From an uncultured Erythrobacter sp. (GTDB taxonomy: Bacteria > Pseudomonadota > Alphaproteobacteria > Sphingomonadales > Sphingomonadaceae), in NCBI GenBank assembly GCA_947488325.1, contig CANKYZ010000002.1:523120-587119 (forward strand): a stretch of 64,000 nt of DNA. Reading direction: 5' to 3'. Shown here piece after piece: positions 3,158 through 12,972 of this stretch. The translations under genes were made by a program, and so were the position numbers. Position 1 is the stretch's first letter. Every line of letters begins with the position of its first letter. The notes under the pieces are model-generated. The model did not search any database and was not told where the DNA came from. It was given only the letters and a program-made list of their open reading frames with translations.

Positions 3158-3852
3158 TCCGTAAACCTCCCAGACGGCACTCGCTGCTCACACGGACTTG
3201 GCACTGGATCAACGCAATAGCGCTGATTGTGCTGTTTATGTCTGGCCTTAACATCTCAAATGCTCACAGGTTCCTCTATTGGGGCAATTATGGGTATGAC
3301 CCAGCAGATGCATGGATGACGGTGATGCGTTTCCCTGCTTGGATCACAATCCCGCAGCGCTATGACCTTGCAGAGGCACGGGACTGGCACAGCACATTTG
3401 CATGGATCTTTGCGCTTGGATTGTTGACGATGTGGATTGGTAGCCTGATCAGCCGGCATTTCTGGCGCGACATTGCGACAAAGCCAAGTGACTGGTCGCT
3501 ACGTTCAATTTTACAAGCGATCAAAGAGCATTTGCCCGGTAGTTCTCGCATTGAAGACCGGACCTACAACCCTGTCCAAAGGATTGCCTATGGGATCGTG
3601 CTAGGGATGTTCCTGCCAATGATGGTCTTTACCGGGCTGGCGATTAGTCCGGGAATTGAACCGGCCGCGCCGTGGTTGGTTGATTGGCTCGGCGGCCGCC
3701 AGAGTGCCCGCAGTCTACACTTTATTTTTTCCTGGGCCCTATTCGGTTTTGTGGCGGTGCATATCGTTATGGTGTTGGCTTCGCACCCGCTGAAACGGAT
3801 TTCGCATATGATTGCAGGTGGCCCACGTGCAGAGGATGGCACCAATGACTGA
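3154..3852 (+). CDS. Cytochrome b/b6 domain membrane protein (YdhU/PhsC-like)
   Basis: TRTWHWINA, ARDWHSTFAW, YNPVQRIAY, RSLHFIFSW, HIVMV: four transmembrane segments with haem-ligand histidines. Confidence 0.85.
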   Translation: MIRKPPRRHSLLTRTWHWINAIALIVLFMSGLNISNAHRFLYWGNYGYDPADAWMTVMRFPAWITIPQRYDLAEARDWHSTFAWIFALGLLTMWIGSLISRHFWRDIATKPSDWSLRSILQAIKEHLPGSSRIEDRTYNPVQRIAYGIVLGMFLPMMVFTGLAISPGIEPAAPWLVDWLGGRQSARSLHFIFSWALFGFVAVHIVMVLASHPLKRISHMIAGGPRAEDGTND

Positions 3853-9239: not shown

Positions 9240-10463
9240 ATGTCCGATATTAAGAAAGTCGTCCTCGCCTATTCCGGCGGCCTCGACACCAGTGTTATCG
9301 CCAAATGGCTTTCCACCGAACGCGGGTTGGAGGTTGTCACCTTCACAGCAGATCTTGGCCAAGGCGAAGAGATCGAACCTGCGCGCGATAAAGCCCGCGC
9401 CATGGGCATTCCTGATAAACACATCTTCATAGAAGACTTGCGCGAAGAATTTGTGCGTGATTTCGTGTTCCCGATGATGCGCGCCAATGCACGATACGAA
9501 GGTGACTATCTTCTCGGCACCAGCATCGCGCGCCCACTGATTTCAAAACGACTGGTCGAAATCGCGCATGAAACGGGCGCAGACTACATCGCTCATGGCG
9601 CAACAGGCAAAGGCAATGACCAAGTTCGCTTTGAACTGTCAGCCTATGCTCTTGACCCGAATATCGCAGTGATTGCGCCTTGGCGCGAATGGGACCTGAC
9701 CTCGCGCACCGCTCTTATTGCCTGGGCAGAGGCGCACCAGATCGCCGTACCCAAAGACAAACGCGGCGAGGCTCCCTTCTCCACCGACGCAAACCTGCTG
9801 CATACATCGTCAGAAGGCAAAGTGCTGGAAGATCCGTGGCAAGAAACTCCGGACTACGTTTATTCGCGCACCAATCACCCAGAAACCGCGCCCGATGCCC
9901 CCGAGTATATCGAGATCGGCTTTGAGGGCGGCGATGGTGTGTCGCTTAACGGTGAAACGATGTCGCCTGCAACTTTGCTGACGTCACTCAACGGCCTTGG
10001 CCGCACGCATGGGATTGGGCGGCTTGATCTGGTCGAAAACCGCTTTGTCGGCATGAAGAGCCGCGGCATGTATGAGACACCGGGCGGCGAAATCTACGCT
10101 TGCGCCCATCGCGGCATTGAACAGATAACCCTCGATCTCGGCGCTGCGCATCTCAAAGATGAACTAATGCCCAAGTATGCAGAGCTGATTTATAACGGCT
10201 TTTGGTTCAGCCCCGAGCGCGAGATGTTACAGGCAGCCATCGATCTTAGTCAGGAACGTGTGACCGGGACTGTGCGGTTGAAGCTCTATAAGGGGCTAGC
10301 AAGCGTTGTGGGCCGAAAATCCCTGAACTCGCTCTATTCCGAAGCGCATGTCACATTCGAAGACGATGCTGGCGCTTATGACCAGCACGATGCCGAAGGC
10401 TTCATCAAACTGAACGCCTTGCGTCTGAAGTTGCTTGCGCAAAGGGACCGCAAGAAGGACTGA
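9240..10463 (+). CDS. argG: Argininosuccinate synthase
   Basis: [48 protein letters not shown]. Confidence 0.98.
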
Positions 10464-10852
10464 CACACACATTCCGAGTCGTTCAACCGAGTCGGTTTGC
10501 GCGTTTCTCAATCGAGCAAATTCTGAAAAGCCAACCTTGCTGCTTTGAACTTACATCATATGGTTAGCTTGAGATGGACTCCTGCCCCTAACTACCAAAT
10601 GCGGTGGAATGTTGAGTTGTCCACCGCCATCCACAAGCGATCTGAGCAAAAGTGGATAACTCGGTCTTGCACACCTTGCGAAAGAACGAATTGAGGCTCA
10701 ATTTCAATTTGTCTTCGGAACAAGAGGACTCAGAGAAAAGGCTGCAAGGCTTTGAATCCTAGAGTTTTTCGAGTGAAGTAGATGCGTTGGTGACTGTCCA
10801 CGCGCTGTCTGAGAGACAACAAGCTGAAGGTCTAGGCCCAAAGCAAGTTGGC

Positions 10853-10880
10853 TTGATCGAGGAGAGTGCGAAGCTAAGTC
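10853..10880 (+). promoter_or_regulatory. Putative alphaproteobacterial RpoD promoter upstream of the structured RNA
   Basis: TTGATCG-N13-GCTAAGTC resembles the Caulobacter-type consensus TTGaCgS-N11-14-GCtANAWC, implying a start near 10885. Confidence 0.4.
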
Positions 10881-10883
10881 AAC

Positions 10884-11345
10884 GGGAAGGCCATGATACT
10901 GGCTGGTGATAGCTGTAGGAAAGTGTTTTCGGACATGGAACTAGAGTGCCTGACTTGCCAATCACCAGTATCGCGGTCTCGACTAAGCCATGGGGCCGTT
11001 CGAACAAGGAGGAGAGCTTAGGCTTGAGTCCAAGTGGAACGATCACAAAGCAAGGTCGGATGCCGGTGCGAGTGCCGGTGGCGAACCGCGAAACAAGGCG
11101 GTGCGGGAGAGCTAGTCTCAAAAGCACTACCGGACGCGACATAGACACTGGGCACCAAGCGCGCTGTTGGAAGAGCAAGACGGACGGTCCGCCGAAAGCC
11201 TTGCAAAACCGCAGTGACCACGCGCTGGTGAGAGTGGGGTCGGCAGCAATGCCGGCCCCATTTGCTATGGGGATCTCAGGCATAGTGAGTTTGACCAACT
11301 CAACTCGCGTATTCAGTGGCCGGACCAGCTCTTCTCACCGTTAAC
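10884..11345 (+). ncRNA. Candidate large (~460 nt) structured non-coding RNA of unknown family
   Basis: Dense nested helices found by eye: 10889-10910/10961-10978; 10981-10989/11021-11030; 11170-11176/11328-11334; 11186-11191/11321-11326; a 12-bp GCAA-tetraloop hairpin at 11234-11261. G.U pairs and purine-rich loops favour the + strand. The overlapping ORFs have no recognisable protein features. Confidence 0.6.
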
Positions 11346-11440
11346 CATCATCGCCTCACCGCAGCTTCGCCCCGCTTCACGCCGCCTTGTCCTTCTCCGA
11401 TTTGCGTGCACGCATTGGCAACGTGTATAGCGATTGCCGA

Positions 11441-12061
11441 ATGGGAAGCCTCAACAGCCTTTTGCAAGCGTCTCCTCGCGCCTTGAGCCCGCGAAGCGCA
11501 GCGCCAACTCGCGGCCGGGCGGCTACGCGCATCGCGTTGATCCTCTGCATCGCCGCAGTCCCCCTTGGTGCATCCTCTGCCCAAACCTCCCCTGCTCAAG
11601 TCACCGCGGACGCCGCCGCCCTCCCCTTTGCCGCCCATTTCGAGGGTGTAGTTGAACCGCTCGCCTCGGACCTGCGTGACGTCGATCCGCGCGCGCCCGC
11701 CACCGCCGTTGACCTCGACAGCTTCGACCCACCGATTGAGGAAGTGCCCAAGACCCAAGTCTTACGCAATCTCGGCGCTGGTGTCGCATCCTATTACGGT
11801 CGCCGCTTCCACGGCCGCCGCACCGCCAATGGAGAGCGTTTCAACATGCGCGCCATGACGGCGGCTCACAAGACGCTGCCCTTTGGCACCATGGTCCGTG
11901 TCACCAACACACGCAACGGGCGCGCCGTCACCGTGCGCATCAACGATCGCGGCCCCTTCATCCCCGGCCGGACGATTGACCTGTCGCGCGGCGCGGCTGA
12001 GCAGATCGGCTTGATCTCCACCGGCCATGCGCGGGTTGAACTTGAACTCATCGCGCCCTAG
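11441..12061 (+). CDS. rlpA: Septal ring lytic transglycosylase RlpA family (DPBB domain)
   Basis: [54 protein letters not shown]. The ATG 11441 start is uncertain; the frame is open from 11387. Confidence 0.93.
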
Positions 12062-12856
12062 CGGGTTCACCTCCCACCAGCGCTCCTCACCAGCCTCAAA
12101 CGCCGCGAGTTGAGCGGCCTCCAACAGGTCCAAGTCATCCACGCTGCGCGCCATTGTGTGCAGAGCCTTTGCATCGTCAGGCCGAGCAGCGTCCATTGCG
12201 GCAAGCCGGCGCTCTAAACACAGGTCCATATCCGCGTGCTCGGCCTGAGACTCAACCTGAGACTTGGACCGCATGTTACACTGTCCAGGGGAAGAAACTT
12301 CATCCTCTCCAACTCCCCCGAAAATCCCCGATCCAAAACCCGGCTCCACCATGGCCAAGGCCGCATCCTCATCTCCCGCCTCCAGTGCTTCCAGCAAAGC
12401 GTCGAAATTCCCCACCACCGCCGCGACGTCCTCTTGCTCACCCAACCGATCAAGCCGCCCAAGATGCGCCAGCAGCAACCGCGTATCGTGCCGCCGCCGC
12501 ATGGCCACGACCTCACCGTGATAAAAGACCTGCTCCTCCACCCCATTCATTGCCCGCGTGGCCAGCGCATCCTCGGCCAGTTCCCGTGCGATCAGCCGCG
12601 CCGCTTGGCACGCCTGACGGAATATCGGGCACGCGCGCCGGTGGCGGTAGACGGTCTGGTGCGAGACGGACGAGGCCTTCGCCGCCGCCCGTATCTCCCC
12701 GCAATCGGCAAGCCGCCGCAGAAACGCCGCCTGCCGCTCCTGCGTGAACTGAAACTGCGCCGCATAATGCTCGCCTGCGGGCAAGGCCTCGATCAGAACG
12801 GGCAATGCCTCGGCTGCGGGGATGAACTGTGTGGGGGTGCGGGGGTGTTGAGACAC
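11762..12856 (-). CDS. Hypothetical protein with terminase-small-subunit-like HTH; true 3' end uncertain because the frame reads through antisense into rlpA
   Basis: AAAGGAA RBS before GTG 12856; [38 protein letters not shown] (HTH-like); [17 protein letters not shown]...RRHDTRLL. Confidence 0.6.
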
Positions 12857-12877
12857 GGGGGGATTCCTTTGTTTTCC

Positions 12878-12972
12878 GCACCCCATCCGGGGCGCGATTT
12901 CCTCGCTCACACGCCCTAAAGGGCGCGTCGCTGCGGGCGACCAGTCGGCCTTGCGGACCCTTGCGGGTCCGT
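12878..12972. repeat. Palindromic REP-like element, copy A
   Basis: gcaCCCCatccGGGGcgc-GATTTCCTCG-hairpin-CTGCGGGCG-...-CCTTGCGG-hairpin; shares its core with 13270-13357. Confidence 0.7.

Follow-up and report, generated by a model that had tools for sequence, protein, structure and literature searches.

A candidate gene for a large structured non-coding RNA between argG and rlpA in Erythrobacter and its relatives

Between argG and an rlpA-like lipoprotein gene in a 64,000-nucleotide stretch of DNA from an uncultured Erythrobacter sp. (the window; GenBank assembly GCA_947488325.1, contig CANKYZ010000002.1, positions 523,120 to 587,119 of the forward strand) lies a spacer of 923 bp that is single-copy in the 3.27-Mb genome, lower in G+C than its flanks and purine-rich on the + strand from ~10700 to ~11300. 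Our analysis indicates that this spacer very probably harbors an autonomous gene for a structured non-coding RNA (ncRNA). The initial annotation of the locus had proposed an undescribed, independent and large structured ncRNA on the + strand between the two genes, and this central proposal was borne out by covariation of the predicted helices, by the lack of any Rfam match and by the lack of a reading frame.

Conservation across relatives, on which the proposal depended, was found. Blastn against 40 relatives matched the spacer in 20 of the 24 genomes belonging to the same GTDB genus, with the alignable part of the query (133-818) corresponding to window positions ~10597-11281. The conserved unit was delimited to ~10597-11266: similarity starts at AAATGCGAYGAAC (~10597) and stops abruptly past GGGGTCGGCAGCAATGCCGGCCCCATTTGC (~11266), and the most conserved stretch (11215-11269, 50 nt) reaches 92-98% identity in blastn alignments within the genus. 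The boundaries originally drawn at 10884 and 11345 had to be abandoned, as conservation begins ~290 nt further upstream and stops at ~11266-11272. Similarly, the size had been put at ~460 nt, whereas the predicted RNA measures ~556 nt, starting ~170 nt further upstream and ending ~75 nt earlier. The earlier interval had omitted ~170 nt of the RNA and, upstream of it, signals covering ~115 nt.

Covarying helices in at least five predicted domains

The main alignment comprised 44 representative homologues (MAFFT, median pairwise identity 56%), whose predicted RNAs range from 464 to 605 nt compared with 556 nt in the window. On this alignment RNAalifold predicted 68 pairs, 32 of which showed compensatory double changes. 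Covariation was then counted over the 57 consensus pairs located downstream of the predicted start, using as controls the same pairs with their 3' partners slid by 1-3 columns as well as 500 column shuffles. Standard pairs were formed in 93.9% of cells, compared to 38-41% in the slid controls, and the number of pairs with two-sided changes (32 versus 12-18) and of compensatory cells (255 versus 32-66) was likewise raised. Not one of the 500 column shuffles reached any of the five covariation measures. Upstream of ~10711, no covariation was seen. Comparison of the homologues demonstrated covarying helices in at least five domains of the predicted RNA, the coordinates of which are collected in Table 1 along with those of the surrounding features.

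In domain II, all eight pairs of helix P3 (10785-10792 with 10877-10884; for example, CG33/UA9) and nine out of nine pairs of helix P4 (10801-10810 with 10861-10870; for example, UA17/CG8/GC5) were compensatory, and 23 out of 28 pairs covaried throughout the domain after segment-wise re-alignment. Automatic stem discovery at a strict threshold, run on the MAFFT alignment, returned only three stems, because variable regions are misaligned there; segment-wise re-alignment did better. The long arm of domain III corresponds to the first helix of the initial annotation, the outer part of which (GGCC at 10889-92 with GGTC at 10975-78) was recovered as a covarying helix with 80.7% of pairs formed. 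Inner parts of this domain were 46-53% paired on the MAFFT alignment, which is poor in that region. Within domain IV, the UUCG-type hairpin includes pairs of the composition GC27/AU5/CG3 and GC24/UA8/AU4/CG3; the closing helix comes from the segment alifold only. A second helix that had been drawn across this region (10981-89 with 11021-30) was only 45.9% paired and clashes with the conserved, covarying UUCG-type hairpin. Across homologues, hairpins swap UUCG for GNRA or other tetraloops with their stems kept, and each RNA contains 6 tetraloop hairpins, as compared with 1.4 in shuffles.

The 3' domain (domain V) is built from four inter-complementary segments, a to d. Segments a and c are alike, as are b and d, which permits two nestings: a:b together with c:d, which was 98.1% paired, and a:d together with b:c, which was 98.7% paired. 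The local a:b hairpin was 99.5-100% paired, with a change from GC to AU in 2 sequences; here, the ccgg-tgcgagtg-ccgg hairpin (11063-11078) described at the outset proved to be 100% paired in the 44 homologues and to carry this GC-to-AU compensation. Pairing of c with d reached 94.2%, with CG replaced by UA in 8 sequences, and c:d encloses an inner helix (11161-66 with 11212-17) showing pairs of the composition CG19/UA16 and UA16/CG14/GC4. In the other nesting, seven compensatory cells were counted in b:c. The window's own copy has one c:d pair broken (A.C) and the matching b:c pair compensated (A-U). The 3' domain may act as a conformational switch or a mobile four-way junction; that it is a genuine two-state switch we regard as doubtful.

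Directly downstream, the terminator-like hairpin, which is rich in G+C, was 100% paired, with 10-11 invariant pairs, and is almost invariant within the Erythrobacter-type family. As conservation stops exactly there, this hairpin probably represents the 3' end of the RNA. It contains the 12-bp GCAA hairpin noted early on (11234-11261), which held up with 100% pairing and 96-98% identity across the genus. In the divergent genera g18 and g58, the terminal stem covaries and the loop CAGCAAUG is kept (GGGCGCUGGCAGCAAUGCCAGCGCCC in g58, GGGGGCCGACAGCAAUGUCGGCCCCC in g18), and the GCAA loop itself seems to be under selection beyond a role in termination. The tail following the hairpin reads AUUUGCUUUU in most relatives and AUUUGCUAUG in the window.

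Other elements of the fold as first drawn did not survive the comparison. The long-range helices GAAGAGC/GCTCTTC and GGTCCG/CGGACC have their 3' partners at 11321-11334, beyond the end of conservation; the GGGAAG/CTTCTC closure and the hairpins gctatg/catagt and gagtt/aactc likewise lack conservation or are placed beyond its limits; and the arm at 11101-11127 lies within a clade-specific insertion present in ~15 of the 44 sequences. The assignment to the + strand, argued initially from G.U pairs, was in turn strengthened. It is supported by the presence of invariant G.U and U.G pairs and by an asymmetry in minimum free energy (MFE), which amounts to -209.2 kcal/mol (z = -2.53) for the predicted RNA on the + strand and to -175.8 kcal/mol (z = -1.45) on the minus strand, a gap of 33 kcal/mol. 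The interval 10884-11345 (462 nt), too, is unusually structured, as had been claimed (-180.1 kcal/mol, z = -2.47, with 1 of 100 shuffles as good; minus strand z = -1.71); taken alone, its fold energy is only suggestive.

Table 1. Features of the argG-rlpA region in window coordinates
Feature	Position	Strand	Description
argG (argininosuccinate synthase)	9240-10463	+	407-aa open reading frame (ORF); upstream neighbor of the RNA gene, same strand
Conserved upstream word AAATGCGRYGAAY	10597-10610		Conserved columns in 20- and 116-sequence alignments
DnaA-box-like word 1	10617-10624	+	TTGTCCAC here, TTATCCAC in most relatives; TCCAC core invariant in 44/44
DnaA-box-like word 2	10628-10636	+	CATCCACAA here, TGTCCACAG in most relatives; TCCAC invariant in 44/44
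DnaA-box-like word 3	10652-10659	-	GTGGATAA, which is TTATCCAC on the minus strand; GTGGAWAA in most of 44
Predicted -35, TTGCGA	10676-10681	+	TTG invariant in 44/44
Predicted -10, CAATTT	10699-10704	+	Consensus CAnnTT; C, A and final T invariant in 44/44
Predicted RNA	~10711-11266	+	~556 nt; start from promoter, end from terminator-like hairpin
Domain I	10711-10784	+	Small tetraloop hairpins, partly resolved
Domain II	10785-10884	+	P3, P4 and inner tetraloop hairpin (~10829-10838)
Domain III	10889-10978	+	Long arm with covarying closing helix; recurs in single-sequence MFE fold
Domain IV	10979-11059	+	UUCG-type hairpin (~11013-11025); tentative closing helix (10979-83 with 11055-59)
Domain V (3' domain)	11061-11230	+	Four inter-complementary segments
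Segment a, UGCCGGYGCG	11061-11070	+	Hairpin with b, CGAG loop
Segment b, GYGCCGGUG	11072-11080	+	Hairpin with a
Segment c, CAYYGG-G-CRC	11146-11155	+	Pairs with d
Segment d, GCGCYGGUG	11221-11230	+	Pairs with c
Terminator-like hairpin	11233-11262	+	13-bp stem, GCAA loop, then UUUGCU(UUU)
Pre-rlpA spacer	11273-11386	+	Unalignable among relatives, where it is ~110-350 nt long
rlpA-like lipoprotein gene	11387-12061	+	DPBB_1 domain (Pfam PF03330, E = 3.1e-28); downstream neighbor

Known families, reading frames and distribution

Scanning the 64-kb window with the 4227 models of Rfam 15, which include OLE, ROOL, GOLLD, raiA, HEARO, the cobalamin riboswitch, group I and II introns and 6S, gave no match at gathering thresholds. 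When positions 10400-11500 were searched with permissive filters (E <= 10), only asX1 appeared, scoring 18.4 bits (E = 4.6) where 70 are required, and was rejected as a chance match of the terminal hairpin. The homologous RNA at eight other loci, including divergent genera, did not match any Rfam model either. A manganese (yybP-ykoY) riboswitch was detected on the minus strand at the other side of argG in a related genus (locus L178 of genome G041, 3377-3557; 49.6 bits against a cut-off of 45), a positive control indicating that the scan works on these loci. The original view of the element as an undescribed candidate, with no diagnostic signatures seen of RNase P RNA, two-piece tmRNA, group I and II introns or a cobalamin riboswitch, was upheld. 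The genome's own copy of RNase P RNA (RF00010) is located at C3:393918-394358 (289.6 bits), with none in the window; ARAGORN found no tmRNA in the window, and a permuted tmRNA with the tag ANDNEALAIAA is encoded at C10:72511-72846. A plasmid, phage or other mobile origin was rejected, the spacer being single-copy and without a match in 72,556 plasmids or 50,697 phages. Literature searches by sequence string and keyword did not return a description of the RNA, and a survey of ncRNAs in 50 genomes (Narunsky et al. 2024, PMC11109978) makes no mention of argG, rlpA, Erythrobacter, Sphingomonadales or the RNA.

Two overlapping ORFs had been pointed out as a possible refutation, namely one of 132 aa on the + strand and one of 139 aa on the minus strand. 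Neither has a Pfam match, and no frame is conserved. A small ORF starting from AAATGCG (10599), open for 31 aa in the window, is broken after 2-13 codons in many homologues. The longest stop-to-stop frames of the 44 homologues span 99-237 aa, mostly on the pyrimidine-rich minus strand, and share no common phase when counted from the invariant 3' end; their length on that strand probably reflects its low purine content.

To describe the distribution of the element, we followed its 3' end. A degenerate 32-nt version of the 3' motif occurs in at least 120 GTDB species-representative genomes. Besides unclassified metagenome-assembled genomes and one bin labelled Synechococcus, all carriers bear the names of Erythrobacteraceae genera, including Erythrobacter, Qipengyuania, Altererythrobacter, Pontixanthobacter and Citromicrobium as well as Croceibacterium, Aurantiacibacter, Porphyrobacter and Parerythrobacter. 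In the bin 'Synechococcus sp. UW140', the motif lies on a 970-kb contig (CALRJK020000001.1, locus L054) together with an Erythrobacteraceae-type argG (89% identity to that of the window); this bin is probably mislabelled or contaminated. Blastn matched the 3' domain in 91 of 301 genomes and 43 of 112 genera of the GTDB family, and a covariance model of the domain (R1; E-values are rough owing to a shortened calibration) matched 139 of the 301 genomes, ~85 of them strongly. At order level, R1 gave no match outside the family. By these searches, the RNA appears to be limited to a portion of the GTDB family of its host, within genera bearing Erythrobacteraceae names.

At nearly all 3'-motif loci for which the upstream flank was included, tblastn identified argG (82-95% identity) as the immediate upstream gene in the same orientation, its stop codon being separated from the conserved block by 130-180 nt, and an RlpA-like gene followed downstream in 10 out of 10 genera inspected. 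The spacer preceding rlpA may hold a promoter belonging to that gene. Three complete genomes of the same genus (G008, G003 and G016; loci L174, L173 and L172, respectively) do not contain the RNA gene and have rlpA 100-240 nt past argG, representing natural deletion or pre-insertion alleles. Since these congeners keep rlpA right behind argG, the adjacency of the two genes is older than the RNA; and since some genomes of the genus are without it, the RNA gene is a discrete unit that is either present or absent. This clean absence, together with a conserved putative promoter and terminator of its own, supports the independence that had been claimed for it.

In four more distant genera (g18, g48, g58 and g67), the triad of upstream words and the promoter, in which GACTC is frequent, are kept, as is a first hairpin of similar form. 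The terminal hairpin was also seen in g18, g58 and g67, and was not found in the g48 locus; where both were seen, 590-710 nt separate the promoter module from the terminal hairpin. The module follows argG in each of the four genera, at a distance of up to ~200 nt in g48, g58 and g67 and of ~700 nt in g18, and neither BLAST nor R1 can align the core sequence any longer. As the module is kept in these genera and the core differs, the true family is broader than the Erythrobacter-type model. A genome of genus g79 (G276, locus L184) has a promoter module and 5' hairpins (AUCGAGAGG, GCCGCAAGGC) homologous to those of the element, and argG is missing from the 1.5 kb around them; apparently, the RNA gene has moved there or its neighborhood has been rearranged.

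A putative promoter and its upstream words

Downstream of the conserved upstream words, and ahead of the first covarying hairpin, sits a module of the form TTG-N3-N17-CAnnTT, in which the -35/-10 spacer is exactly 17 nt long in 44 of 44 homologues. The same geometry recurs in the divergent genera. Judging from this pattern of conservation, 10676-10704 is probably a sigma-70-type promoter for the RNA, and its geometry places the predicted start near 10711 (+/-3 nt). An RpoD-like promoter had initially been assigned to 10853-10880, a position that now falls inside the covarying P3/P4 domain. An extracytoplasmic function (ECF)- or heat-shock-type promoter in the upstream block was rejected by eye, as it is not conserved.

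Three DnaA-box-like words are positioned at ~-95 to -52 of the predicted promoter. Among homologues, they take the forms TT(A/G)TCCAC, (T/C)(G/A)TCCACA and, inverted, GTGGA(T/A)AA, and words 1 and 3 are exact reverse complements, forming a perfect inverted repeat. In word 3, which is kept in g18, g48, g58 and g67, the residues G66, G68, G69, A70 and A72 are invariant. Compared to the DnaA-box 9-mer TTATCCACA, the words of most relatives match at 8/9, 7/9 and 8/9 positions, respectively. Such words are rare in the genome: TTATCCAC/GTGGATAA was counted 27 times in 3.27 Mb, versus ~100 expected from length alone, and only two loci, one of them the RNA locus, have two such words within 80 bp. A joined pattern of TCCAC, GTGGAWAA and the promoter identified one locus per genome in 54 of 301 family genomes, and none with a reversed control. 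The conserved word AAATGCGRYGAAY further upstream is probably a DNA site. A replication origin at this position was rejected; cumulative GC skew declines steadily through 533 kb of contig C2 and has its extremes at 215 kb and 635 kb.

Complementarily, the -35/-10 interval contains GANTC, the methylation site of CcrM, in 34 of the 44 homologues, at two main positions, which read GACTC immediately behind the -35 or GATTC seven bases farther along. In total, only 52 GANTC are present in the 29 kb of aligned elements. Promoters with GANTC in their spacer are of the kind controlled by GcrA and methylation state in Alphaproteobacteria, and a GcrA homologue is encoded in the genome. With DnaA-box-like words and GANTC at the promoter and GcrA in the genome, we infer that the RNA would be made at a particular stage of the replication cycle. 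Control of its expression by DnaA and/or CcrM-GcrA is suggested by these motifs, although we consider it somewhat short of an even prospect. Additional sites of this type lie closer to argG. Just past its stop codon, at 10479-10500, the window has two GAGTC (CcrM-type GANTC) sites in a direct repeat, CCGAGTCGTTCAACCGAGTCGG, and at the equivalent position (~10525 in the alignment), ~70-90 nt before the DnaA-box-like words, a GAGTCG is conserved in most relatives. The post-argG GAGTC sites may be part of the same regulatory region as those words.

Interpretation and relation to known RNAs

We favor, as likely overall, the reading that the spacer holds a single-copy chromosomal gene for a large, multi-domain structured ncRNA that is outside Rfam 15, is expressed from a promoter tied to replication and the cell cycle, and acts in trans. 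Transcription would start near 10711 at the sigma-70-type promoter and stop at the terminal hairpin, yielding an autonomous RNA rather than an mRNA leader. The link to replication and the cell cycle would be provided by the three DnaA-box-like words and by the GANTC present in most homologues. A connection to envelope or division biology, as raised initially, is not upheld: it rests on synteny, which predates the RNA, and the promoter features point to replication and cell-cycle control instead.

Several observations weigh against this reading. Both ends of the RNA are inferred, from promoter geometry at one side and from the terminal hairpin at the other. A consensus sigma-70 scan (9 of 12 matches) did not call the promoter module, and its -10 sequence, CAATTT, is weak by the E. 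coli standard; a simple terminator scan left the terminal hairpin of the window, with its interrupted U-tract, uncalled. The alignments are sequence-based (MAFFT) and leave domains I and III partly resolved. In the 3' domain, the a:d helix is without two-sided changes, and the two pairing schemes may equally be the trace of a duplicated hairpin. With regard to control, the window's own promoter copy is one of the ten without GANTC, and some other dimeric regulator could use the DnaA-box-like words, the first and third of which form a perfect inverted repeat, as its operator. A genome scan for three relaxed DnaA-box words within 150 bp found no cluster anywhere, indicating that canonical clusters of boxes do not mark the replication origin here. 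Finally, the RNA is dispensable in some congeners.

Among the alternatives, the most serious is that the RNA is a cis-acting leader of rlpA, an oversized riboswitch-like sensor in which the hairpin at 11233-11262 is a regulated attenuator, read through from the promoter at 10676-10704 when the 3' domain takes one of its pairings or binds a ligand or protein. The downstream position of rlpA on the same strand in every genus checked would fit this, as would the two mutually exclusive, conserved pairings right beside the terminator and the identity of segment a (UGCCGG) with the start of the terminator's 3' strand, by which it could pair with the 5' strand. However, neither pairing scheme overlaps the terminator stem, whose 13 bp are nearly invariant and very stable, and the gap of 110-350 nt from the hairpin to rlpA is unconserved. 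Moreover, the congeners without the RNA keep argG and rlpA adjacent with a 100-240-nt spacer, from which it follows that rlpA has its own expression signals as well as that the synteny came first; in g79, argG is not found within 1.5 kb of the homologous promoter and 5' domain; and a length of 460-600 nt is far above known leader sizes. We therefore regard a leader function as improbable.

Alternatively, the element could be a long structured 3' untranslated region of argG, or be released from the argG transcript by processing, and stabilize or regulate the argG mRNA. This explanation draws on the constant position of argG directly upstream on the same strand, 130-180 nt from the conserved block, and on the lack of an obvious terminator between argG and the element in the window. 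It is distinctly improbable in view of the invariant TTG-N17-CAnnTT and the protein-binding-type words that separate argG from the first covarying helix, and of covariation being absent upstream of ~10711. Besides, argG is intact and 87-89% identical in the checked congeners that do not have the element, and one genus has the element with no argG within 1.5 kb.

Conservation at the DNA level, with incidental RNA folds, is a third option, the element then being a DnaA-titrating or -reactivating site like datA or DARS or a chromosome-organizing site. The three DnaA-box-like words, two in the same orientation and one inverted, are indeed rare in the genome and surrounded by GANTC sites. Such a site would account for 10597-10660 only, though, leaving aside the 550 nt downstream, whose G.U pairs, specific to one strand, and 32 compensatory pairs do not arise from DNA-binding sites, and cumulative GC skew shows no origin here; we deem it very improbable. 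A missed protein-coding gene, be it the 139-aa minus-strand or the 132-aa + strand ORF, has a negligible probability, because the long open frames that do exist, especially on the minus strand, differ in phase between homologues, pairwise indel runs are depleted in multiples of three (91/463/212 for lengths of 0/1/2 modulo 3), protein-level similarity is limited to short stretches of conserved DNA with no Pfam match, and compensatory base-pair changes occur throughout.

Returning to the autonomous RNA gene, its product would rely on its folded shape to act in trans, whether by scaffolding a ribonucleoprotein, by serving as a protein decoy or by self-assembling into a particle, rather than through short antisense pairing. 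We prefer these modes because helices, loops and junctions are under selection from one end of the RNA to the other, and because the 55 nt at its 3' end, where conservation is highest, are themselves engaged in base pairs. A trans-acting role as scaffold or decoy appears to us evenly balanced between right and wrong. In the most specific form of the proposal, this would be a new class of large ornate RNA. The replication and cell-cycle machinery would control its synthesis through DnaA boxes and through methylation written by CcrM and read by GcrA, and it would act as a folded particle; the GCAA loop and the strand-exchanging 3' domain would then serve self-assembly, and the RNA would couple the state of chromosome replication to a downstream process in the Erythrobacter lineage. 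As a whole, this combination is unlikely. A bolder variant would have the inverted DnaA-box triad function as a DARS- or datA-like, DnaA-modulating site, the activity of which is set by transcription of the RNA.

In its general properties, the argG-rlpA RNA resembles OLE (RF01071), ROOL (RF03087), GOLLD (RF01998), raiA (RF03072) and HEARO (RF02033), with which it shares a size class of several hundred nucleotides, many covarying helices with UUCG or GNRA tetraloops, restriction to a lineage, and conservation borne by the fold rather than by an ORF. Unlike these, it matches none of the 4227 Rfam models (E <= 10), and it is found in an alphaproteobacterial host in one copy at a fixed chromosomal locus, with DnaA-box-like and CcrM sites at its promoter. 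GOLLD and ROOL are often associated with prophages, whereas none of the phage or plasmid records searched carries the argG-rlpA RNA. Among the large, lineage-restricted structured RNAs of bacteria, a known kind, it forms a new class and extends them to a new host group. To our knowledge, only about a dozen classes of large, intricately folded bacterial ncRNAs are known, most of them without a function.

A further counterpart is the smtA motif ('Soda Lake RNA'), a candidate large ncRNA of >350 nt confined to Thioalkalivibrio (Narunsky et al. 2024, PMC11109978), which is likewise restricted at the genus or family level, unusually long, backed by covariation and too large for a riboswitch. The argG-rlpA RNA differs from it, on the basis of the published description, in being larger, in its unrelated lineage and neighborhood, and in having an identifiable putative promoter and terminator. 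With respect to regulation, CcnA, a cell-cycle-regulated ncRNA of Caulobacter crescentus (Beroual et al. 2022, PMC8959179), offers a parallel as an alphaproteobacterial ncRNA with cell-cycle-controlled transcription, to which the promoter architecture points in the present case. The argG-rlpA RNA is ~three times larger than CcnA, structured throughout and far from any skew minimum, and it has DnaA-box-like and GANTC marks rather than a CtrA box. CcnA is reportedly a short, CtrA-driven small RNA encoded near the origin that base-pairs with the ctrA and gcrA mRNAs, and a functional analogy is speculative. Finally, three close TTATCCAC-type words, one of them reversed, recall the DnaA-box clusters of E. 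coli at DnaA-controlled promoters, datA and DARS. Unlike those clusters, the words here lie upstream of a putative structured-RNA promoter, and their inverted repeat would suit another dimeric regulator equally well.

Each new class of large ncRNA has brought new biology or a new RNA architecture. Annotation based on Rfam cannot label this locus, and the homologous spacers that were checked match no Rfam family. The host family is abundant in marine and freshwater habitats and includes culturable strains, and the single copy of the RNA gene, along with natural non-carriers among close relatives, makes it suited to genetics. Its covariation is unusually rich. A promoter of fixed geometry accompanied by DnaA-box-like words and a CcrM site gives a clue to timing, which most RNAs of this kind do not offer, and, with it, a concrete hypothesis of an RNA linked to the cell cycle. 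At the far end of the locus, a 382-aa ORF on the minus strand (11762-12910) converges on rlpA.

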